NCBI GenBank assembly: GCA_964419925.1
Contig: CAYQPR010000002.1
Coordinates: 2,002-66,001, forward strand
DNA: 64,000 bases
Direction: 5' to 3'
From: Candidatus Woesearchaeota archaeon
GTDB lineage: Archaea > Nanobdellota > Nanobdellia > SCGC-AAA011-G17 > GW2011-AR20
Shown: positions 29,554-51,305 of the stretch, one piece after another
Layout: each line of letters begins with the position of its first letter
How positions within the stretch are numbered: the stretch's first letter is position 1
Translations under genes and position numbers: made by a program
The notes under the pieces: model-generated
Databases searched by the model: none
What the model was told of the DNA's origin: nothing
Seen by the model: only the letters and a program-made list of their open reading frames with translations

Positions 29554-31440
29554 ATGAGTTTTAAAGACCTAATTAAAGTAATTAAGAAATATAATCCTGA
29601 ATCAAACATTGAGCTAATAATGAAAGCTTACAGTTTTGCTTCAAAAAAACATCTTAAACAAATTAGAGAATCAGGACATCCTTACATTACCCATCTTGTT
29701 GGAGCTGCTGGAATCTTAGCCAACTTAAAAACAGATGACGAAACAATTGCAGCTTGCTTATTGCACGATACCTTAGAAGATACGAATACAGCCGAAGAAG
29801 AATTAAAAGAAAATTTTGGAGAGGATATTCTAAATCTAATAAAAGGAGTCACAAAAATTAGTAAATTAGTTCTTCCAGATTTTAAAGAAAGACAAGTAGA
29901 GAGTATAAGAAAAATGTTAATTGCAAGCACAAAAGATATTCGAGTTATTTTAATAAAATTAGCCGATAGATTAAACAACATGTATTCTCTTAAATATTTT
30001 CGTGAAGAAAAACAAAAAAGAATAGCAAAAGAAACATTAGAAATTTATGCGCCTTTAGCTTATAGGTTAGGTTTGTTTAATATAAAATGGCAGTTAGAGG
30101 ATTTATCTTTTAGATATTTAGAACCTAAAATTTATCAAGAAATAAAATCAAAAGTTGTTAAAACAAGAAATGAAAGGGAATCAGAGATTAAAAAGATTAA
30201 ATCAATAATAGAAAGAGAGTTAGCAAAACGCAATATAAATGCACAAGTATTTGGAAGAGCAAAAAGTTTCTACAGTATTTACAAAAAAATAACTGAAAGA
30301 AATAAAACAATAGAAGGTATGTATGATTTAATTGCATTAAGGATATTGGTAGAAAAAAAACAACAATGTTATGAAGTTTTAGGAATAATTCATAATTTGT
30401 TTAAACCTGTAGAAGGGAAGATTCAAGATTATATTGCAAACCCAAAACCAAACATGTACCAAAGCTTACATACAATTATTCTTTACAATGAAGATCAAGT
30501 AGAAATCCAAATATTAACAAAAGATATGCATTTGATAAATGAAGAAGGAATTGCGGCACATTGGAGATATAAAGATAAAAAATCTATAAATGATCCTGAA
30601 TTTGAGAAAAAGTTAGGATGGATTAAAGAAGTAATTAACCTAAAATCAAATATGGGAGAAGATTTTCTTGAAAGATTAAAGATTGATTTATTTTTAGACC
30701 ATATCTTTGTTTTTACTCCAAAAAATGATATTGTTGAGCTTCCAAAAGGAGCGACATTACTTGATTTTGCCTATGCCGTACATAGTGATTTAGGAAATTC
30801 ATGTATAGGTGGAAAAGTAAATGATAAATTTGTAAATTTAAAGCACGAACTAAAAAATACTGACCAAGTTGAGATATTAGTTTCAAAAAATCAAAAACCG
30901 AGCAGAGAATGGTTAAAATTTGTTATTTCTCAAAGAACAAAGGAAAAAATTGCACACTATTTAAGAATGCAAAATGAAATTCCAATATCAAATCTAAGAA
31001 AGATGATTAATGAAAAAAATAGTTTAATAAAAAGCGAAACAAAGTCAACTTTTATTAAGATTTCCGAATGTTGTGACCCAATTCCAAATGATCCGATTAT
31101 TGGATTAAGCACAAAAAATAACAAAATTACAGTGCATAAAACAAATTGTAGCAAACTAAATACATTTAGCTTAAAAAAAGTAAAAGTATTTTGGAATGAT
31201 GAAATTGGGTTAACCGTAAATATCAAAGTTATAGCTTCAGATAGATTAGGGTTATTTGCAGACGTTTTAAAAAATATATCTTCATTATATCTAAACATTG
31301 AAAAAGCAAGTGCAAAAACAATCAATAAAGAATTAGGAGAATGCAACATTAAAATTAAAGTAAATTCTTTAGAAGATATAAAAAAAATTGTTGATCAAAT
31401 AAAAAAAATAAATGATGTTAGAAAAGTTAGTTTGAGTTAA
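29554..31440 (+). CDS. long RelA/SpoT homolog (HD hydrolase + (p)ppGpp synthetase + TGS + ACT)
   Basis: HD motif HPYITHLVGAAGILA...LLHDTLEDT. Synthetase motif RAKSFYSIYKKI...YDLIALRILV. TGS IFVFTPKNDIVELPKGATLLDFAYAVHSDLG. C-terminal ACT-like region. Confidence 0.85.
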   Translation: MSFKDLIKVIKKYNPESNIELIMKAYSFASKKHLKQIRESGHPYITHLVGAAGILANLKTDDETIAACLLHDTLEDTNTAEEELKENFGEDILNLIKGVTKISKLVLPDFKERQVESIRKMLIASTKDIRVILIKLADRLNNMYSLKYFREEKQKRIAKETLEIYAPLAYRLGLFNIKWQLEDLSFRYLEPKIYQEIKSKVVKTRNERESEIKKIKSIIERELAKRNINAQVFGRAKSFYSIYKKITERNKTIEGMYDLIALRILVEKKQQCYEVLGIIHNLFKPVEGKIQDYIANPKPNMYQSLHTIILYNEDQVEIQILTKDMHLINEEGIAAHWRYKDKKSINDPEFEKKLGWIKEVINLKSNMGEDFLERLKIDLFLDHIFVFTPKNDIVELPKGATLLDFAYAVHSDLGNSCIGGKVNDKFVNLKHELKNTDQVEILVSKNQKPSREWLKFVISQRTKEKIAHYLRMQNEIPISNLRKMINEKNSLIKSETKSTFIKISECCDPIPNDPIIGLSTKNNKITVHKTNCSKLNTFSLKKVKVFWNDEIGLTVNIKVIASDRLGLFADVLKNISSLYLNIEKASAKTINKELGECNIKIKVNSLEDIKKIVDQIKKINDVRKVSLS

Positions 31441-42334: not shown

Positions 42335-42898
42335 ATGAAAAAATCTTATTATTTTATTGGGATTTTATTTTTAATAGTCTCGTTTATTTTTGATAAACAA
42401 ATCTCTATCTTTTTTACAAGTTATAGAAATCCAATTTTAAGTTCAATTTCAATTTTTATTGATGGATTTAAATGGTATTACTTGTTTGGAATTGTGTTAT
42501 TAATTTTATTATTAAGAAAAGAATACAAAAAACTTCCATCTTTAGTTTTGTCATTAATTTTATATTTATTTATTGTAAATGGTCTTAAAATCTTATTTTC
42601 TAGAGAAAGGCCATTTGTTAATTTAAAAAATGAATTAGTTGAAACAACAAACCCTTATAGAAGTTTTCCAAGTGGTCATGCAACCTCAATGTTTGTCTTG
42701 CTCCCCTTTCTTAACTTTTTTTATGGTTTCTGGTTTATATTAAGTATCGTTGTTGCATTTTCAAGAGTTTATCTAGGAGTTCATTACTTAAGTGATATTA
42801 TTGGAGGTGCTTTGTTAGGATTTTTAATACAAGATTTAAGTGAATTCTTAATGATTAGAGCTCAGAAAAGTAAAATTTTTACTCACCGAAAGGTTTAA
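42335..42898 (+). CDS. PAP2-family membrane phosphatase (polyprenyl/dolichyl diphosphate phosphatase-like)
   Basis: KILFSRERPF (KxxxxxxRP), SFPSGHAT (PSGH) and SRVYLGVHYLSD (SRxxxxxHxxxD). Confidence 0.8.
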   Translation: MKKSYYFIGILFLIVSFIFDKQISIFFTSYRNPILSSISIFIDGFKWYYLFGIVLLILLLRKEYKKLPSLVLSLILYLFIVNGLKILFSRERPFVNLKNELVETTNPYRSFPSGHATSMFVLLPFLNFFYGFWFILSIVVAFSRVYLGVHYLSDIIGGALLGFLIQDLSEFLMIRAQKSKIFTHRKV

Positions 42899-42949: not shown

Positions 42950-45007
42950 ATGAAAAAATTATTATCATTAAGTATATTTTTATTTTTAATTAGTCTATTT
43001 ACATTAAGTTCAATAAATGTTGATGGTGCGATCACGGTTGGAACAATAACAACTGACAAATCAGGCTATAATCCTGGTGAAACTGCAACTATCACAATTA
43101 AAGATTTAACAAATACTGGAACAAATGCAGTTACAGTATCATTATCAAGTACAGAGTTAATTAAAGGTACAGATAAAATAGGTACGCCTGTTATCAGTTC
43201 AATAAGTCTATCTGCATCAGGCACAGTAGGCGATATAAAAAATCAAACATTCACTTTTGTTATTCCAAGTAAACTACTTGGAACTTATAGTGCAACAATA
43301 ACTGCACAAGACAGCGGAGACCTAAATAACAAAGACACTGAAGTCTATTCATTGACTATAAATTCAAAATCAGATTTAACTTTTGAAGGTTTGACAGATA
43401 ACAAATTAACAATTTCAGGTCAAAAAGATTTTAGTGCTAAAAGGAAATTCACATTAACAAATAAAGGGAGTACAGTTTTAACAATTCCAGTTACAACAGG
43501 AATAGTAGTTAAACAAACAGATAAAACCTTTACAAATTCTTTTGAAGATGATGATGGAGATAAAATCCAATTCACATTTGTAAACTCAGATAACACAAAT
43601 ATAGCTTTCCCATTAACATTAAATCCGGGGGAAAATAAAGAAGTTTATATAAAATCAAGTATAGATCAAGATTCTGATACTGGTTCATATTCTGGTACAG
43701 TAACTGTTACAGCAACAGAATTAACTACTCAATTATCACCTTTCAATTTAGAAGTTAACGTAGATCCAGAAATATGTGAAGCTGGAAGAGTTAAAGAAAA
43801 GGTAGAATTTGATAGCCATGACAGTGGAAACTTAATACTTGACTTAGACAATCCTGATTCAGGAGACAATTTTAATCCTGGAGAAAAAATTTCAATTGAA
43901 GGAAGCGTAGAGAATAAAGCAAATGAAGACAAAGATGTAATCGTTGAAGCAGTTCTTTACAACATAGATAGAAACAAGGTAGTTGAAAGAGTTGAAACAG
44001 ATTCTTTTGAAGTTGTAGAAAGTGAAGATGAGTCTTTTACTTTAGACTTAGAAGTTCCTGTAGATGATTCTTCATTAAAAGAAGGAGACAAATATAGGTT
44101 ATACATCAAAGTTTATGAAGATAGCAATGAAGATGAAAACTGTAACTATGACGACCTTGATATGGATTTTGATAGACAAGATCATCAAGTTGTAATAACT
44201 CGAGCAGAAGTAACACCAAGCGTAGCATCTTGTAATGCAAATGTAAATTTTGCAGTAGAAGTTCAAAACGCAGGTAAAAAAGTTGAAGAAAGAACTTCAA
44301 TAAAATTAAGAGAATCCGAATTGGGATTGAATTACGAAACTGATTATTTCAGTTTAGCAAAATTCGATAAGTCCGGAGACAATATAATCAAAACACTTAC
44401 ATATAAAATTCCAAATGGAATAGCTGAAAAAGATTATTTCGTTGAAGTTTTATCAATCTTTGACGGTGGAAAGAAAACTGATTCAGAGTTGGTAAAATTA
44501 ACAATTAAAGGATGTTCAGCAGTTCAAGACAGTTTACAATTGTCATTGGTTCAAGACAGTATAACTGCAACACCAGGAAAATTATTTGGATTCCCATTCA
44601 AATTAAGAAATACTGGAAGTACGGTTCAAACATATTCAGTTGAAATATCAACAGGAGTATGGGCAAATCAATTGCAAGATCAAACTGTAACATTACAACC
44701 TGGACAAGAAACAACTGTATATAGCTATTTAACACCTAAGTCTGATTTAACAAGCGGAAGCTATACATTAGACATAAAGGTAAAGCAGGATAATAAAGTA
44801 GTAAAAACGCAAACAGCAACTGTTCAAATACCTCAAGCAGGAAATAGCGGTGGAACACCAACAGGGGGTACAACATACCAACCAAGTGTATCATTAGATT
44901 CTATATGGAGAAATCTTGCAGGTAGTACAGCGTTCTGGATTATAGCAATTATAATTGTATTTGCTTTGGTTATATATATCTTAACTATTTTATTAAGGCC
45001 GAGGTAA
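42950..45007 (+). CDS. large cell-surface (S-layer-like) protein with signal peptide and a C-terminal TM anchor plus basic tail
   Basis: Signal peptide MKKLLSLSIFLFLISLFTLSS. Thr/Ser-rich beta-rich repeats. C-terminal GGTPTGGTTYQP...FWIIAIIIVFALVIYILTILLRPR. Confidence 0.6.
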   Translation: MKKLLSLSIFLFLISLFTLSSINVDGAITVGTITTDKSGYNPGETATITIKDLTNTGTNAVTVSLSSTELIKGTDKIGTPVISSISLSASGTVGDIKNQTFTFVIPSKLLGTYSATITAQDSGDLNNKDTEVYSLTINSKSDLTFEGLTDNKLTISGQKDFSAKRKFTLTNKGSTVLTIPVTTGIVVKQTDKTFTNSFEDDDGDKIQFTFVNSDNTNIAFPLTLNPGENKEVYIKSSIDQDSDTGSYSGTVTVTATELTTQLSPFNLEVNVDPEICEAGRVKEKVEFDSHDSGNLILDLDNPDSGDNFNPGEKISIEGSVENKANEDKDVIVEAVLYNIDRNKVVERVETDSFEVVESEDESFTLDLEVPVDDSSLKEGDKYRLYIKVYEDSNEDENCNYDDLDMDFDRQDHQVVITRAEVTPSVASCNANVNFAVEVQNAGKKVEERTSIKLRESELGLNYETDYFSLAKFDKSGDNIIKTLTYKIPNGIAEKDYFVEVLSIFDGGKKTDSELVKLTIKGCSAVQDSLQLSLVQDSITATPGKLFGFPFKLRNTGSTVQTYSVEISTGVWANQLQDQTVTLQPGQETTVYSYLTPKSDLTSGSYTLDIKVKQDNKVVKTQTATVQIPQAGNSGGTPTGGTTYQPSVSLDSIWRNLAGSTAFWIIAIIIVFALVIYILTILLRPR

Positions 45008-45034: not shown

Positions 45035-45346
45035 ATGACATATAAGCATATAATTGCGGCAGGGTATTCTAAAGAAGTTTTAGCTAAAAATAAAGAAGAA
45101 GAGAAAAAAATTTCTTTGGAATTAAAAAAATATATACAAAATAAACTCACATTAGAGAGTATAGATCCAATGAGATTCCCAAAACCTTTAGTTTCGGGAG
45201 CAATTGGAGACCGAGAATATGTATTTAGTATATTTTTCGGATATCAAATTTCAAAAGAAGAATGGACTAATAGAATAATAAGGGGGCTTAGACGAAAAGG
45301 TTTTAAAATAAAGATTTTTGGATTAGAAGACATACTTGAAAAATAA
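45035..45346 (+). CDS. hypothetical protein (first of three co-transcribed small ORFs)
   Basis: 103 aa. Its start overlaps a TTTAAAATG promoter-like context. No motif. Confidence 0.45.
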   Translation: MTYKHIIAAGYSKEVLAKNKEEEKKISLELKKYIQNKLTLESIDPMRFPKPLVSGAIGDREYVFSIFFGYQISKEEWTNRIIRGLRRKGFKIKIFGLEDILEK

Positions 45347-45665
45347 ATTTAAAATGGTTAACGATGAAGATGAATATAATGGGTCAACTGCACTTATATT
45401 AGATCATTATTTTGGTAATTATATCCATGTGGTCTGGTTTTATTATAATAACAATATCCAAAAATCTTACGAAGAAATTGGAAAAATTAAAGAAGAATTC
45501 TGTAAAGGATTAGAGTTGAAAATTAAAAAAGATTTAAAAGAGTATGCAGGAATAACCAATCAGACATTAAAAAATTTTTTAGAACTTGGAAAATCTTTAG
45601 ATTGGCTAGTGAAGGAGAATTTAGATTTGCTAAGAGATAAATATAGCAAATTAAGGCAAGAATAG
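45336..45665 (+). CDS. hypothetical protein (second of three)
   Basis: 109 aa. Overlaps the upstream ORF by 11 nt. Confidence 0.45.
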   Translation: MKNKFKMVNDEDEYNGSTALILDHYFGNYIHVVWFYYNNNIQKSYEEIGKIKEEFCKGLELKIKKDLKEYAGITNQTLKNFLELGKSLDWLVKENLDLLRDKYSKLRQE

Positions 45666-45675
45666 TACTAAAAAA

Positions 45676-45972
45676 ATGAATGATTTACCTTACATAATTT
45701 CTGTATCAAATAGAAAACCATTAAAGGAAACTTTGAGAGATGGAGAAAAATTAGAAGAAAGGTTAAGGAAAATTTTAGGCCATATCACTAAATATAATGG
45801 ACTTCATTCGGATTTAAATCTGGTTGATCATGCAAACGACGAAAAAATTTACTTTGCAAGAATAGATCAACATAATTACAATGAAACAATGGAAGATTTA
45901 AGGAATCTTGAAGCAGAGTTGATAATAAAAGAAAAAGAATTGAAAATTTATCGTTTAGAAGAAGTTTTTTAA
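45676..45972 (+). CDS. hypothetical protein (third of three)
   Basis: 98 aa. 10 nt downstream of the previous ORF. Confidence 0.45.
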   Translation: MNDLPYIISVSNRKPLKETLRDGEKLEERLRKILGHITKYNGLHSDLNLVDHANDEKIYFARIDQHNYNETMEDLRNLEAELIIKEKELKIYRLEEVF

Positions 45973-46007: not shown

Positions 46008-46733
46008 GTGGAATTAAAAGAAAGGATAAAAAACCATTCATTGTATAAGAAGACATTAGAAAATAGATATTTAGCAATATTTCTACTATTAGTGATAATT
46101 CTAATGACTTACAGTTATTTTAAAGAAGGAATCGTTTATCAAATAAGCGATGTAAATCTAGAGGGGGTTAAAAATTTTATTAATTCATTTGGAAATTTTT
46201 CATGGATAATTTATGTTCTTACTTTAATTTTAATATCAATATTTCCAGTTCCATCAACAATAATTAATGTTGCAGGAAGTTTATCTTTTGGGCCATTAAA
46301 TGCAGTATTTTTAACATTAATTGGAGCAGTTTTAGGAAACAGTATTGATTACTTCATTGCAAGAAGATATGGGTATGAGCACATTAAACAAATTATTAAT
46401 GAGAAAAGAAGAGAAAAATTTGATGATTACTCTAAAAAATATGGTTATTTGGTGTTGTTCATTTTAAGATTAAATCCCTTAACATCAACAGATATTTTTA
46501 GCTATTTATCGGGGTTAATTGGAATGCCATTTAAAAAATTTTTACTCAGTACCATTTTTGGAATACTTCCGGGGATTATTTTTGTCTCTTATTTTGGAAG
46601 TAGATTTATAAATGATAATAAACTATTTAGATTAACATTTGTTATTATAACGATGTTTTATGCATTAATAATGGTTTATTTGATTTTAAGATTTTTAAAA
46701 AAGAAAGTTAAAGAAAGATTTGTTAAGAAATAA
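46008..46733 (+). CDS. DedA/TVP38 (SNARE-associated) family membrane protein. Possible GTG start.
   Basis: FPVPSTIINVAGSLSFGP...GAVLGNSIDYFIARRYG is the DedA signature. Confidence 0.65.
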   Translation: MELKERIKNHSLYKKTLENRYLAIFLLLVIILMTYSYFKEGIVYQISDVNLEGVKNFINSFGNFSWIIYVLTLILISIFPVPSTIINVAGSLSFGPLNAVFLTLIGAVLGNSIDYFIARRYGYEHIKQIINEKRREKFDDYSKKYGYLVLFILRLNPLTSTDIFSYLSGLIGMPFKKFLLSTIFGILPGIIFVSYFGSRFINDNKLFRLTFVIITMFYALIMVYLILRFLKKKVKERFVKK

Positions 46734-46842: not shown

Positions 46843-47661
46843 TTATAGGGAATTAATATCAAGAATACCTTTTAATAACTTTCGTCTTTGTTCTAAGGTG
46901 GTGTGTATTGGGCAGAATCCAAACCTCTTCCATACAAAATATTTGCTGTAATGTTTTGGGTTGCTAAACCCAATAATGGTAATCCATTTTTCCAAATTTT
47001 TCTTGCCAACAATCACAACACGATAATGTTTAAACACCCTATTATTTCGCTTACGTTTTCCTTTCTCTAAATAACTATGTATTCCCAACTTGTTTAATAA
47101 CACCTTTAACTGTTTTGTTAATTTCTCTGAGGCAAATTGACCTCCAATTAATGGGTAATGATGTTTCTTAAATTTGGTATCTTTTCTTATTTTAAACACC
47201 AAATAAAAATCCGTATCAGCAATTCCCCTAATTAATGCAGAAATAATTTTATTATCCTTAGTTTCAAAAAAATATTTGGGTATTTTATAAGAATTATCCA
47301 ATTTATTTCCAGGTGTATATTTCATATTTTTAACGAAAAAATTAATTATAGATTTAGAGGTTACACAGATTTTTATTCCATTTGTTCCAGAAATTTTACG
47401 AATATATGGCCTTACGTTAAAAAGATTGTAAAATAAATCTGATATTATAATGTTATGATAATCTAAATCTTCTTGAGCATGTCCGTATACAAATAACTCA
47501 TATTTTCTTCTGTTAGATGGTTTTTCTTTTAAATGGATGCACCCGTCTCCAATCATTAAACCAAATAATTCTGCCAAATCAGAAGTTAATTTATTAGGCA
47601 AATGAACATCTCTTTTTATATCTGAATTACTGAATGAAATTTTTGAGTTATCAAATATCAT
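46843..47661 (-). CDS. double-motif LAGLIDADG homing endonuclease, free-standing
   Basis: Motif 1 LAELFGLMIGDGCI and motif 2 ISALIRGIADTDFY. 272 aa. A TATA-like TTTATAA lies about 30 nt upstream. The ORF ends exactly where the tRNA gene begins. Confidence 0.75.
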   Translation of the reverse strand: MIFDNSKISFSNSDIKRDVHLPNKLTSDLAELFGLMIGDGCIHLKEKPSNRRKYELFVYGHAQEDLDYHNIIISDLFYNLFNVRPYIRKISGTNGIKICVTSKSIINFFVKNMKYTPGNKLDNSYKIPKYFFETKDNKIISALIRGIADTDFYLVFKIRKDTKFKKHHYPLIGGQFASEKLTKQLKVLLNKLGIHSYLEKGKRKRNNRVFKHYRVVIVGKKNLEKWITIIGFSNPKHYSKYFVWKRFGFCPIHTTLEQRRKLLKGILDINSL

Positions 47662-47879: not shown

Positions 47880-48485
47880 TTATTTTTTCCATTTAGAAAT
47901 CCATTTACCCATCTTAAAATGTAATAAAACGCTTCCAAAAAGGATACCTAAACTTCCATAAACCTTATCTAAAAAAGAATCAAAATCCGCATTTTGATAA
48001 AAATCATAATACATAATTGTTCCAAATATTTTATCCCCATAAAACTCATATTTCTCCCATAAAAAAACTCCAAAGATTAAAGTAAAAATAATTGAAAAAA
48101 TAATGGATTCATTAACATTGGTATCTTTTTTAGTTAAATATGTTTTAAGAATATAATAAAGAACGGCAAAGATTATGGTATAAAGAATTAAATTAAAAAA
48201 ATGAACATAGCTGTCAAAGTCGATTGAATTATCTAAAAATAATGTCAATATCATACTCATAACAAGTAAGAATAAAACAAATATTTCTAAGGTGTATAAT
48301 AAATTTTTATTATAATTTAATTTTATGTAATTTAAGCTAAATAAAAATTTTGGTATGAGCATCAATAAAGGAACAACAACTATCCACATAACCGTCAAAA
48401 AATAATTCTTTTGAAAAAATTTTAATATTCCCATAAGTATTACGATAAAAATAATTATGCGATAAATTAACTTGAATAGTTCCAT
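47880..48485 (-). CDS. polytopic membrane protein of unknown function
   Basis: About six hydrophobic helices. No motif. Confidence 0.45.
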   Translation of the reverse strand: MELFKLIYRIIIFIVILMGILKFFQKNYFLTVMWIVVVPLLMLIPKFLFSLNYIKLNYNKNLLYTLEIFVLFLLVMSMILTLFLDNSIDFDSYVHFFNLILYTIIFAVLYYILKTYLTKKDTNVNESIIFSIIFTLIFGVFLWEKYEFYGDKIFGTIMYYDFYQNADFDSFLDKVYGSLGILFGSVLLHFKMGKWISKWKK

Positions 48486-48554
48486 TGCTAGAAAAAGAAT
48501 AGAATAATTTTTAAAGATTTCTACCCAAATAAATAGTTATATATTAATAGGTTT

Positions 48555-49295
48555 ATGAAAAAAGAAAACTATACTTTTGTTGATATGCATGTTCATTCTA
48601 ATTACTCTTTAGATTCTTCAAATAAAATAAAAAATATTATTGAAAAAGCAAGAGAAAAAAATATAGGAATTTCTATAACCGACCATAATGAAATTGAAGG
48701 ATGTTTAGAGGCTTCAAAATATGATATCTTTCTGATTCCTGGAATAGAAATAACCTGTATGGAAGGTTGCCATATCCTAGTTTATTTTTATAAAATAAAA
48801 GACTTAGAAAGATTTTTCAATAAAGAAATAAAGAATAATATGTATAATAAAATGAGAACAAAGATACCTCAAGAAAACCTAATAGAAATAACAAATAAAT
48901 ACGAATGTTTGGTTAGTGCCGCACATCCATTTGGAGCCGGAAATTCTGGAATTTATAAATTAAAAAGATATAAGGATATGGAGACATTAGAGGGATTAAA
49001 CTCGGCTTTGACAAAAAATAAAAATAGTAAAACAATTTCTTTACGAAAAAAATTTTATACTGCAGGAAGCGACGCACATATAATCTCACATATCGGAAAA
49101 GGACTAGTTGGAGTAAAGGCAAGTAATGTAAAAGATTTTCTCAAAGGAATAAAGAATAATAAAAATATAATTAGAGGAAGGGAAATAAGTTTAATTGAAC
49201 AGATAAAACTGAATTTATTTAAAGAATTTTCTTTAATTAAAAAAATGAAATTAAAAGATTTTATAAATAACAGATTAATTCATATAATAAAATGA
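48555..49295 (+). CDS. PHP-domain phosphoesterase
   Basis: FVDMHVHSNYSLDSS...ISITDHNEIEG and later AAHPFG / GSDAHI are PHP metal-binding His/Asp motifs. Confidence 0.65.
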   Translation: MKKENYTFVDMHVHSNYSLDSSNKIKNIIEKAREKNIGISITDHNEIEGCLEASKYDIFLIPGIEITCMEGCHILVYFYKIKDLERFFNKEIKNNMYNKMRTKIPQENLIEITNKYECLVSAAHPFGAGNSGIYKLKRYKDMETLEGLNSALTKNKNSKTISLRKKFYTAGSDAHIISHIGKGLVGVKASNVKDFLKGIKNNKNIIRGREISLIEQIKLNLFKEFSLIKKMKLKDFINNRLIHIIK

Positions 49296-49789
49296 AATTA
49301 AGTTTGGCTGATAAGGTCTCATTATCAAGAATACCATTAACAATATTATTTATCCTGTTTATAGGAAATCAGTTTTTATCTTTAATTATACTGACTCTTG
49401 TAATAATTTCTGATATCTTAGATGGTTATTTAGCGAGAAAAAGTAAAACAACCAAATTTGGAGCAACCTTAGATCCGTTAATGGATAAATTTTTTATAGT
49501 AACAACATTTATCTTTTTTTTAACAAATCAAGAAATTAGTTTTATACAGTTTTTATTTTTAATAATAAGAGATATTTATAGCATTTCAGAGATGACATTG
49601 ATTCAATTATTAAAATCAGAAAAGTCGCACAAAGCAAACATATTTGGAAAAATAACAACAACTTTACAGTTCATAGCAATCGGATTTTTAATTTTAAGAA
49701 TAAATTTGGTGAATCCATTAGTAATTATTATATTAATTTCTTCATTAATAACAATAATAAGCTATATTAGATCGAGGTGGTTAAAATAA
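49292..49789 (+). CDS. CDP-alcohol phosphatidyltransferase (archaetidyl-head-group synthase family)
   Basis: DILDGYLARKSKTTKFGATLDPLMDK is the D-G-x2-A-R-x8-G-x3-D-x3-D signature. ATGA overlap with the upstream PHP gene. Confidence 0.75.
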   Translation: MKLSLADKVSLSRIPLTILFILFIGNQFLSLIILTLVIISDILDGYLARKSKTTKFGATLDPLMDKFFIVTTFIFFLTNQEISFIQFLFLIIRDIYSISEMTLIQLLKSEKSHKANIFGKITTTLQFIAIGFLILRINLVNPLVIIILISSLITIISYIRSRWLK

Positions 49790-50298
49790 TACTAGAGATT
49801 ATCTATCTTTTATTACCAGGGTATTTTGCAAACATGTCTCCTGCATTTTCAAGCAAAATAAATTTTCTTAATTATCCTGTAGATTTCAATAAAACAATAT
49901 TCGGAAAAAGAATTTTTGGTAAGAATAAAACTTTTAGAGGTTTTTTCTTTGCAATAATATTTGCAATAATTATTGCTTATGTTCAGAGTTTGCTAAACTT
50001 AAATGTTAACTTAATTGATTATAAAAACTTTATTTTAATCGGATTCTTAATGGGATTTGGGGCAATGTTTGGAGACTTAATAGAAAGCTTCTTCAAGAGA
50101 CAATTAAATATTCCGCCGGGTCATCGTTTTTTACCATTTGATCAAATAGACCATGTAATGGGTTCATTGCTCTTTCTTTCAATTAGTTATAGTATAAGTT
50201 TAAAAATATTTATTATTGCAATAATGATAACTTTTCCACTGCATTTAATTATAAACTATATTGCATATAAATTAAGGCTAAGAAATACTTACTGGTAG
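49777..50298 (+). CDS. carS: CDP-archaeol synthase (CTP:2,3-di-O-geranylgeranylglyceryl-phosphate cytidylyltransferase, CdsA/CarS family)
   Basis: GKRIFGKNKTFRG and GDLIESFFKRQLNIPPGHRFLPFDQIDH match the cytidylyltransferase C-terminal signature. About 170 aa and multi-TM. Confidence 0.65.
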   Translation: MVKIILEIIYLLLPGYFANMSPAFSSKINFLNYPVDFNKTIFGKRIFGKNKTFRGFFFAIIFAIIIAYVQSLLNLNVNLIDYKNFILIGFLMGFGAMFGDLIESFFKRQLNIPPGHRFLPFDQIDHVMGSLLFLSISYSISLKIFIIAIMITFPLHLIINYIAYKLRLRNTYW

Positions 50299-51305
50299 TT
50301 AAATTTATTCTTCATTTTTTTAAATATATTTTTAGCGTCTAAATGTCTTTTATTGAAATGTAATTTTGCGGGCAATCCGGTTTTAATGAATGTTTTTAGT
50401 AATCCTTTAAAAACATTTTTCATAAAGATATTATTTCTAACACTATCATTTAATATTGTTTTAACAAGCCAATCTGCTTTTTTATCGCTTTCTCCAAAAG
50501 TAAATCGATTTATTTCTGGTTTGGTATTAATCTTTAATTTAGAAAAGATATGATTCATCCTTGCATTAATTTCATTTACAAAACTAAATTTAGTTAAACT
50601 TCTTGCAACAATATAAGATTTTCCCATTGCAATATTTCTAAAGTATTCATCAAAATTATCTCCTTCAGCAAGCGTATAAACTCTTCCAATTCTGCCAATA
50701 TGACTATCTGTAGAAGCAATAACCCCCTTATTATATTTTTGAGCAAGAAATAAAGAAAATTTATTTAATGGTTTTATTATTCCCATGTTATACTCTAGAA
50801 CTGGGAAATGTTCAACAAGTTTTAAAACGGAGTCAACATTAAGTTCTTCATGGTTATAACACCAGTAGGGATGATTGTAAACATAATGAAGCTTATTCTT
50901 TTTAAGATATTTTAACAATGAAAATATATTTCTTTCATCAAGAGAGATTTCCCTTAAATCTCTAAATTGTTCTTTTGAAAGACCATAAACGTTTGTATGT
51001 ATTGTATGACCCACTCTCTTTTTATCAGTTATCTCAATTTCAACTCCAGTAACTAACTTATTCTTTTTCCATCCAATACTGTCATAAGCTGCCATTGTAT
51101 CATGATCTGTAAATGTAATAAAATCAAGATTTTTTCTCAAAGCTTTTTTATATAAATAATTAGGGTCTAATTTTTTAAATGGAAGAACATCATCAGAATA
51201 CCAAGTATGAACATGCAAATCTGCCTTTTTCCATCCTTGATTTACTAATTCTAAAGATCTCTTTTTAGAAATAATTTGGTCATAATTAATCTTTAATCCC
51301 ATGCC
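50289..51305 (-). CDS. PHP-domain phosphoesterase (second, larger). The track ORF extends to 51431, but the likely start is the Met at 51305.
   Basis: KADLHVHTWYSDD...ITFTDHDTMAAY and later STDSHIG are PHP motifs. Confidence 0.6.
   Translation of the reverse strand, partial: GMGLKINYDQIISKKRSLELVNQGWKKADLHVHTWYSDDVLPFKKLDPNYLYKKALRKNLDFITFTDHDTMAAYDSIGWKKNKLVTGVEIEITDKKRVGHTIHTNVYGLSKEQFRDLREISLDERNIFSLLKYLKKNKLHYVYNHPYWCYNHEELNVDSVLKLVEHFPVLEYNMGIIKPLNKFSLFLAQKYNKGVIASTDSHIGRIGRVYTLAEGDNFDEYFRNIAMGKSYIVARSLTKFSFVNEINARMNHIFSKLKINTKPEINRFTFGESDKKADWLVKTILNDSVRNNIFMKNVFKGLLKTFIKTGLPAKLHFNKRHLDAKNIFKKMKNKFNYQ

Follow-up and report, generated by a model that had tools for sequence, protein, structure and literature searches.

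A PHP-domain phosphoesterase gene recurring beside archaeal phospholipid head-group genes: a candidate archaetidylglycerophosphate phosphatase

A 64,000-nt stretch of DNA from a Candidatus Woesearchaeota archaeon (contig CAYQPR010000002.1 of assembly GCA_964419925.1; "the window" below refers to the whole of this stretch) carries, at positions 48555-50298, three genes encoding a PHP-domain phosphoesterase (PHP1), a CDP-alcohol phosphatidyltransferase (CAPT) and the CDP-archaeol synthase CarS. The question raised by this locus is what a phosphoesterase does beside two enzymes of polar-lipid synthesis. The original prediction, made from the sequence, took PHP1 for a missing phosphatase of lipid head-group synthesis. 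This was supported in part by our analysis: the lipid gene context was found to recur, and much of the PHP1 family turned out not to be linked to lipid genes. We consider it probable that PHP1 is a phosphoesterase of lipid head-group metabolism. The narrower assignment, as the phosphatase of archaetidylglycerophosphate (AGP), is tentative and may well prove wrong. It is comparative genomics that supports the link with head-group metabolism; which substrate is used, and that the enzyme is a monoesterase, is what we infer. The strongest support for the AGP-phosphatase reading comes from outside the window.

PHP1 (48555..49295, + strand) encodes a 246-aa protein with the Pfam domains PHP and PHP_C, the CAPT gene (49292..49789, + strand) a 165-aa protein of family PF01066, and carS (49777..50298, + strand; PF01864, NF003114), which starts with GTG, a 173-aa protein. 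Gene calls on the source contig (ENA ERZ27284378 k139_105869, 92,403 bp) were identical, with products of 246, 165 and 173 aa and, for a second PHP-domain gene (PHP2) next to carS, 337 aa. The three genes had been described as overlapping start to stop, and reading of the sequence confirmed both overlaps: ATGA at 49292-49295 between PHP1 and CAPT, and 13 nt at 49777-49789 between CAPT and CarS. The overlaps are not remarkable in themselves, because the window has 43 pairs of neighbouring genes on the same strand, of which 16 overlap, eight of these 16 by the 4-nt ATGA. They are ordinary in the window and speak for operon organisation only. The notable feature is rather the combination of genes, which recurs elsewhere. 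Relatives with 44-73% identity (L007, L090, L091) have kept both the PHP-CAPT-CarS order and the ATGA overlap, and further cases of this order with the ATGA overlap were found on contigs shared by P0001/P0242 and by P0006/P0243. The intergenic, AT-rich region 5′ of the operon (48486..48554, + strand) is presumed to be its promoter. In this region a TATA-like TATATATTAATA can be read approximately 8-20 nt ahead of the PHP1 ATG, and the operon transcript is possibly near-leaderless.

A search with a CarS alignment yielded 80 metagenomic loci with 44-76% identity, and CarS was called in 78 of them. A PHP gene was present near CarS in 25 of these 78 loci, in at least six layouts. Among loci with 3 kb or more of upstream sequence it was 17 of 40, and among CarS clusters at 70% identity 14 of 28. 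The chance expectation, put generously, is approximately 3-5%, which corresponds to a binomial P < 1e-12, a value inflated by kinship among the loci. The layouts include 'capt> capt< php>.<.< cars>', 'php> capt> cars>', 'capt< php> cars>', 'cars> capt> php<' and 'php> cars>', the last without an adjacent PgsA-type CAPT in L096, L147, L152, L154 and L160. Genes for phosphatidylserine decarboxylase, a PssA-like CAPT, a PlsC-like acyltransferase, a GT2 glycosyltransferase and a methyltransferase are also found there, and the region around CarS is plainly a polar-lipid island. Motif scans detected no PAP2 or HAD phosphatase conserved in the CarS islands; a PAP2 relative was located near CarS in one of the 80 loci.

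Most PHP proteins of these islands belong to a "short PHP" subfamily of approximately 211 aa, which is distinct from PHP1 (28-45 bits against it) and has the same domains and catalytic residues. Thus two PHP + PHP_C subfamilies fill the same gene-neighbourhood niche. The short PHP gene usually adjoins a canonical PgsA: the CAPT of L089 scored 164.5 bits and the N-terminal half of that of L117 scored 135.5 bits (cut-off 109.1), and both have the complete set of residues K83, R110, R118 and K137 (numbering of Staphylococcus aureus PgsA). Genes of the PHP1 type adjoin a divergent CAPT with the signature RKRxKTT, as in the window.

Some further genes were seen in the CarS islands. The most conserved neighbour of CarS, found in 53 of the 78 loci, encodes a 155-aa multi-pass membrane protein belonging to no Pfam family; its gene is the next one downstream of CarS and is read from the other strand (L087-L166; e.g. 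L103:816-1280, - strand). It is absent from the window, where a 201-aa membrane protein encoded upstream of the operon (47880-48485) did not match it in a profile search. Double-CAPT fusions of approximately 340-375 aa are present in many DPANN islands (L099, L108, L116, L117, L122, L124, L132, L150 and others; for example L117:2609-3721, - strand). One type combines a canonical PgsA N-terminal half with a second CAPT domain, the other a degenerate CAPT-like N-terminal half with a PssA-like C-terminal half. The PlsC-like acyltransferase gene (PF01553, HX4D motif) was found between PHP and CarS at L118:3726-4277 (- strand) and in 16 other CarS loci. The GT2 glycosyltransferase gene adjoins it, and a bacterial-type acyltransferase was unexpected in an ether-lipid island. 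Some islands also contain a membrane H+-pyrophosphatase-like gene and a NUDIX gene.

The same association was seen when neighbourhoods were anchored on PHP1. A scan with a PHP1 alignment, restricted to one genome per species, gave 392 relatives. The best 80 loci, for which we clustered every gene lying up to 6 kb to the left or right of PHP1, came from DPANN-like archaeal metagenome-assembled genomes (MAGs; about 36), Methanomicrobiales (12) and Desulfobacterales together with other Proteobacteria (about 32). In the DPANN-like loci the commonest conserved neighbours were CAPT (10 loci) and CarS (8 loci). Their arrangement varied. CAPT-PHP-CarS was the order in L002 and L010, and L007 shares PHP-CAPT-CarS with the window; CarS precedes PHP in L071, the two genes diverge in L048, and PHP and CAPT converge in L012. 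On a neighbor-joining tree, six of the seven members of the subclade containing the PHP1 of the window were lipid-linked. The co-occurrence of PHP and CDP-alcohol transferase genes across archaea, proposed as a check of the original prediction, was therefore observed, with PHP + PHP_C genes recurring in CarS/CAPT islands in many arrangements.

Among the Desulfobacterales, a gene for a GGDEF diguanylate cyclase precedes the PHP1-family gene on the same strand in 12 loci (L011, L014, L015, L037, L074 and others), and a dynamin-like GTPase is encoded a few genes downstream. These neighbours hint that in bacteria the PHP1 family has another or a further function.

A separate pairing was found in Methanomicrobiales, where the PHP1 orthologue abuts a cardiolipin synthase gene tail to tail in 11 of the 12 loci (Methanospirillum, Methanoregulaceae and Methanomicrobiaceae; locus GC content 40-67%). 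The product of the neighbouring gene, which contains PLDc_N and two HKD domains, passes the cardiolipin synthase equivalog TIGR04265 with 519-520 bits at a cut-off of 290. This was the only neighbour family common to three or more of the 12 loci. Since no other family reached that number, the surroundings of the pair have otherwise been rearranged. The purified cardiolipin synthase of this type from Methanospirillum hungatei converts two archaetidylglycerol molecules into archaeal cardiolipin (PMC8141893); the gene next to cls is not mentioned in that paper.

The properties of the PHP1 protein point to a catalytically competent member of the PHP superfamily. Pfam matches were 43.3 bits for PHP (PF02811, cut-off 26.4) and 28.0 bits for PHP_C (PF13263, cut-off 21.3). 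In an alignment of 32 homologues with 33-73% identity, residues D10, H12, H14, D20, H44, E65, H124, D173 and H175 were invariant, and position 73 was occupied by H, D or E. Modelling of the metal site had been suggested together with the original prediction; an AlphaFold (AF2) model was obtained with high confidence (pLDDT 95.7). The model has the distorted (beta/alpha)7 barrel that defines membership of the superfamily, and the trinuclear metal site is predicted to be intact. By its structure, PHP1 looks like a competent metallo-phosphoesterase, from a branch of the PHP proteins that has been little characterised; the structure does not reveal the substrate.

Comparison with known PHP enzymes did not place PHP1 among them. 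Nuclease-type features, of the kind associated with DNA polymerase X (PolX), had been named as evidence that would contradict a lipid role; PHP1 has no PolX module (a family X polymerase core fused to PHP) and belongs to no curated nuclease or nucleotidase family. TrpH/YciV RNase AM and the Cv1693-type 3′,5′-nucleoside bisphosphate phosphatase (COG0613) share the PHP + PHP_C architecture with PHP1, and structures matched in this group were 7ug9, 9etk and 2yb1. However, PHP1 scored 20.2 bits against the RNase AM/TrpH family RNase RNM (NF047791, cut-off 375), with a match confined to residues 8-69, the N-terminal HxH region, and 22.4 bits against the nucleoside bisphosphate phosphatase family (NF041577, cut-off 400). 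The scores were 26 bits for histidinol-phosphatase HisJ/HisK (TIGR01856, cut-off 90.2) and 38 bits for CehA/McbA (NF038032, cut-off 80), so that PHP1 also falls below the curated threshold of the PHP metallohydrolases represented by TM0559 (PDB 2anu), BVU_3505 (3e38) and CehA/McbA. EndoQ, the lesion-specific endonuclease of Pyrococcus furiosus (5zb8/7k30), has approximately 400 aa with additional domains, whereas PHP1 has 246 aa, is 21% identical to it and lies among lipid genes, not repair genes. No Zn-finger or extra C-terminal domain of the EndoQ type was found in PHP1, and its four cysteines are scattered with no CxxC. Searches of Pfam and NCBIfam gave no PgpA, PAP2, HAD or PTP match. The sole match in a sequence search of the PDB was Lmo0812 (E 0.62), which is of no use for the assignment. 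No fusion of PHP with CAPT, CarS or cardiolipin synthase was present in the surveyed loci, among the top 120 PHP1 homologues or among 108 CAPT homologues. Amphipathic membrane-binding helices at the C-terminus of PHP1 were considered and rejected, the hydrophobic moment of 0.39 and net charge of +5 not being distinctive in a Lys-rich proteome.

The two partners of PHP1 differ in how closely their reactions can be assigned. CarS covers profile positions 1-175 of 175 of PF01864 (131.2 bits) and exceeds the cut-off of equivalog NF003114 (149.5 bits, cut-off 148). The GTG at 49777 is the sole in-frame start ahead of its conserved N-terminus, and the protein is 45-76% identical to the products of the 80 metagenomic CarS genes. 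The CAPT matches PF01066 with 85 bits (cut-off 22) and has the motif D-x2-DG-x2-AR...G-x3-D-x3-D, which reads DILDGYLARKSKTTKFGATLDPLMD. Its NCBIfam scores were 81.0 bits for pgsA (TIGR00560), 50.4 for ClsA and 34.2 for the archaetidylinositol-phosphate synthase family archin_ph_syn. The expectation that the transferase resembles archaetidylinositol-phosphate synthase was therefore not borne out; with 81 bits for pgsA against 34 for archin_ph_syn it is PgsA-like instead. Its best solved relative is PgsA of S. aureus (7drj, E 2.7e-8), in which K83, R110, R118 and K137 are the basic residues that clamp the 3′-phosphate of phosphatidylglycerophosphate (PGP) (PMC8640168). The CAPT of the window retains equivalents of R65, K83, R110, K135 and T138; it differs from PgsA in the loss of R118 and K137 and in a pgsA score of 81 where the cut-off is 109.1. 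It belongs to a divergent small subfamily, the one with the RKRxKTT signature, which has about nine close relatives.

Such a protein leaves room for more than one acceptor. Glycerol-3-phosphate could be the acceptor. Alternatively, the CAPT could be a cardiolipin synthase of the Cls_cap type, taking an acceptor that carries no terminal phosphate, archaetidylglycerol for instance. Its NCBIfam scores are below both the pgsA and the cardiolipin synthase cut-offs. Exterkate et al. reported that archaeal BLAST matches to a Cls_cap enzyme are mostly Woesearchaeota proteins (PMC8141893). Regarding the claim that the transferase yields a phosphorylated head-group intermediate, the CAPT family assignment held, and the phosphorylated product is not established for the window because two of the four terminal-phosphate residues are lost.

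We read the three genes as a translationally coupled operon for polar-lipid head-group synthesis. The pathway that we propose would begin with CarS, which by its family membership would convert archaetidic acid into CDP-archaeol. The PgsA-like CAPT would then replace the CMP of CDP-archaeol with a head-group alcohol, and PHP1 would remove the terminal phosphate of AGP to give archaetidylglycerol, which would be an end product and also the substrate of cardiolipin synthases. The theme shared by all PHP partners, namely CarS with PgsA-type CAPTs, the divergent CAPT and the phospholipase D (PLD)-type cardiolipin synthase, is archaetidylglycerol. AGP phosphatase is favoured because dephosphorylation of AGP is the sole step among these partners without an assigned archaeal enzyme. 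On this reading, which we take as the best explanation, the relevant intermediate would be AGP rather than archaetidylinositol phosphate.

A number of observations weigh against this assignment. It is guilt by association, and many of the surveyed loci are phylogenetically related, so that the P values overstate independence. Between roughly a quarter and a half, and no more, of the relevant DPANN loci show lipid linkage; several Woesearchaeota clades and all Desulfobacterales of the PHP1 family have no lipid neighbours. The pair of genes in Methanomicrobiales is convergent, hence not co-transcribed. PHP1 itself is predicted to be soluble, without a membrane anchor; its C-terminal helices are moderately amphipathic and no membrane-binding or lipid-binding element is evident. 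The nearest solved fold is that of the nuclease EndoQ, with RNase AM also among the nearest. As to the transferase, pgsA is its best family and yet the score is below the cut-off, the equivalents of K83 and R110 are kept while that of R118 is M or T and that of K137 is T, and the enzyme may not make AGP or any phosphorylated product. Finally, the window encodes an alternative candidate for a lipid phosphatase, a protein of the PAP2 superfamily, to which PgpB belongs, in a gene 5.6 kb upstream of the operon.

As an alternative, PHP1 could act in lipid head-group metabolism as a phosphodiesterase, phospholipase C/D-like or glycerophosphodiesterase-like, which would strip head groups from scavenged host lipids and supply archaetidic acid to CarS, or as a CDP-archaeol hydrolase controlling the activated pool. 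Many DPANN archaea have no de novo lipid synthesis, and remodelling of host lipids requires a source of archaetidic acid. The CarS/CAPT context would fit such an activity equally well, and in the five loci named above PHP lies directly beside CarS with no PgsA-type CAPT. A CAPT that has lost two terminal-phosphate ligands may have no need of a downstream phosphatase, true diesterases exist among PHP enzymes, and the nearest folds are EndoQ and RNase AM. However, salvage gives no explanation for the pairing with cardiolipin synthase in Methanomicrobiales, which are free-living methanogens making their own lipids. Canonical PgsA, whose product calls for a monoesterase, is most often the gene directly next to PHP in the islands, and no lipid-binding or membrane-insertion element is evident in PHP1. 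We regard this explanation as unlikely, and more probable than the two that follow. One is that PHP1 is a housekeeping nuclease or nucleotidase (EndoQ-like, RNase AM-like or a pAp phosphatase) and that its adjacency to lipid genes is synteny inherited in compact genomes. Homologues of PHP1 are auto-annotated as 'TrpH' in the source databases, most loci of the PHP1 family, including all those of Desulfobacterales, are without lipid neighbours, and gene overlaps are common in the window. Against this stand curated scores far under threshold (20 against 375 for RNase RNM, 22 against 400 for the nucleoside bisphosphate phosphatase) and the absence from PHP1 of the Zn-finger, the extra C-terminal domain and the PolX module. 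Inherited synteny, moreover, cannot account for at least six arrangements, for two PHP subfamilies, or for the fact that in Methanomicrobiales, with all other neighbours changed, PHP1 is independently paired with a lipid enzyme of an unrelated kind. This makes a housekeeping role improbable.

It can also be imagined that PHP1 clears soluble by-products, pyrophosphate released by CarS or CMP released by CAPT, and so pulls these reactions forward. Its adjacency to both genes and its predicted solubility would agree with this, and PHP domains were first proposed as pyrophosphatases. We know of no characterised PHP enzyme that is a dedicated pyrophosphatase, though, and some islands already contain the H+-pyrophosphatase-like and NUDIX genes. 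A cardiolipin synthase of the PLD type releases glycerol and neither pyrophosphate nor CMP, which leaves the Methanomicrobiales pairing unexplained. Clearance of by-products is the least credible of these explanations, and we consider it very improbable.

A more specific version of the AGP-phosphatase reading can be formulated, in which PHP + PHP_C proteins form an archaeal AGP phosphatase family, non-homologous to the known PGP phosphatases and tied specifically to cardiolipin synthesis. Woesearchaeota PHP1 would be coupled to a divergent, possibly Cls_cap-type CAPT, and its Methanomicrobiales counterpart to a PLD-type synthase. We find this version doubtful. Such a role would parallel the step carried out by Gep4 or PTPMT1 in the mitochondrial cardiolipin pathway.

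The reaction proposed for PHP1 is that of PgpA, PgpB (PAP2) and PgpC (HAD) of Escherichia coli, Gep4 of yeast and PTPMT1 of mammals, and the position in the pathway, between a PgsA-type synthase and cardiolipin synthase, would be the same. PHP1 would be at most a functional analogue of these PGP phosphatases: it is not homologous to them, and it is a predicted soluble (beta/alpha)7-barrel protein with a trinuclear metal site. It is known that several unrelated folds (PgpA, PAP2, HAD, PTP) have already solved the PGP-phosphatase reaction, and PgpA of E. coli acts on archaeal AGP (PMC9385802). According to reviews, the archaeal enzymes Ags and Agp are known from homology alone and await characterisation, and no PIP phosphatase has been identified (PMC9385802, PMC4244643). 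Literature searches turned up neither a connection between PHP enzymes and dephosphorylation of PGP or AGP nor a named archaeal AGP phosphatase. The reaction and the PHP fold are both known; what would be new is a PHP subfamily at this step, together with the PHP-cardiolipin synthase and PHP-PgsA-CarS neighbourhoods.

Archaeal phospholipid head-group steps have largely been assigned by homology. The present prediction spans both uncultured DPANN and cultured methanogens, including Methanospirillum, and is therefore directly testable. Suitable assay systems exist in the reconstitution of CarS, PgsA and Pgp, in the E. coli pgpABC mutant and in the purified cardiolipin synthase of M. hungatei. 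If correct, it would add a new enzyme family for a reaction that has evolved several times, improve the annotation of lipid pathways in DPANN genomes, whose capacity for remodelling host lipids is debated, and supply a missing part for archaeal lipid pathways in synthetic cells.

The second PHP gene, PHP2 (50289..51302, - strand; Pfam PHP; 337 aa as called), converges on the operon from the other strand as described originally, its 3′ end overlapping that of carS by 10 nt. Its open reading frame (ORF) reaches 51431 and was called from the ATG at 51302; P0121 is 100% identical to it over 337 aa. The protein represents a different, CehA/McbA-like PHP lineage; it scored 34.3 bits for Pfam PHP and 63.6 bits for CehA/McbA (cut-off 80), and no pairwise similarity between PHP1 and PHP2 was detectable. 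Homologues of PHP2 are found in Methanosarcina, Methanolobus, Methanothrix and several bacterial phyla. No phospholipid genes were present near distant homologues in three contexts (Methanosarcina, Methanolobus and a 197-kb MAG contig), where the neighbours were NurA/HerA, ABC transporters or GT28-like glycosyltransferases. The adjacency of PHP2 to the operon is probably incidental, although close relatives of PHP2 share the same small contig with CAPT. In Methanolobus sp. WCC4 (L168:3605-7221) the PHP2 homologue lies between GT28/MGDG-synthase-like glycosyltransferases with a HAD hydrolase nearby, and the PHP2 family may have a glycolipid context.

Two further membrane proteins possibly concerned with lipids are encoded upstream of the operon. 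The PAP2-superfamily phosphatase mentioned above (42335-42898, + strand; 187 aa; PF01569, 68.9 bits) may be a PgpB-like lipid phosphatase. Its gene is located directly 5′ of that for a 685-aa surface protein (42950-45007) with a signal peptide and a C-terminal anchor, and because this large surface protein adjoins it, a role as polyprenyl-pyrophosphate phosphatase in a glycosylation cycle is suggested. The second is a VTT/DedA-family membrane protein (46008-46733, + strand; PF09335, 95 bits), which weakly matches the undecaprenyl-phosphate transporter UptA and represents a further lipid-handling gene 1.8 kb upstream of the operon. Three consecutive small ORFs of 103, 109 and 98 aa (45035-45972, + strand), the first two overlapping, had no Pfam match. 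A free-standing ORF of 272 aa (46843-47661, - strand; LAGLIDADG_3, 34.6 bits) is LAGLIDADG endonuclease-like and matches intein regions of archaeal proteins, with no host gene around it; homologues were found in five CarS-anchored loci.

The remainder of the window is in agreement with its archaeal origin. It is AT-rich (GC content about 0.23-0.32) and Woesearchaeota-like among the DPANN, its genes have their closest homologues in Candidatus Woesearchaeota MAGs, and it carries the canonical superoperon of proteasome alpha, SBDS, Rrp4, Rrp41 and Rrp42. It also encodes a full-length long RelA/SpoT homologue of 628 aa (29554-31440, + strand; HD_4, RelA_SpoT, TGS and ACT domains). To our knowledge long enzymes of this type are unusual in archaea, and the gene may have been acquired horizontally.

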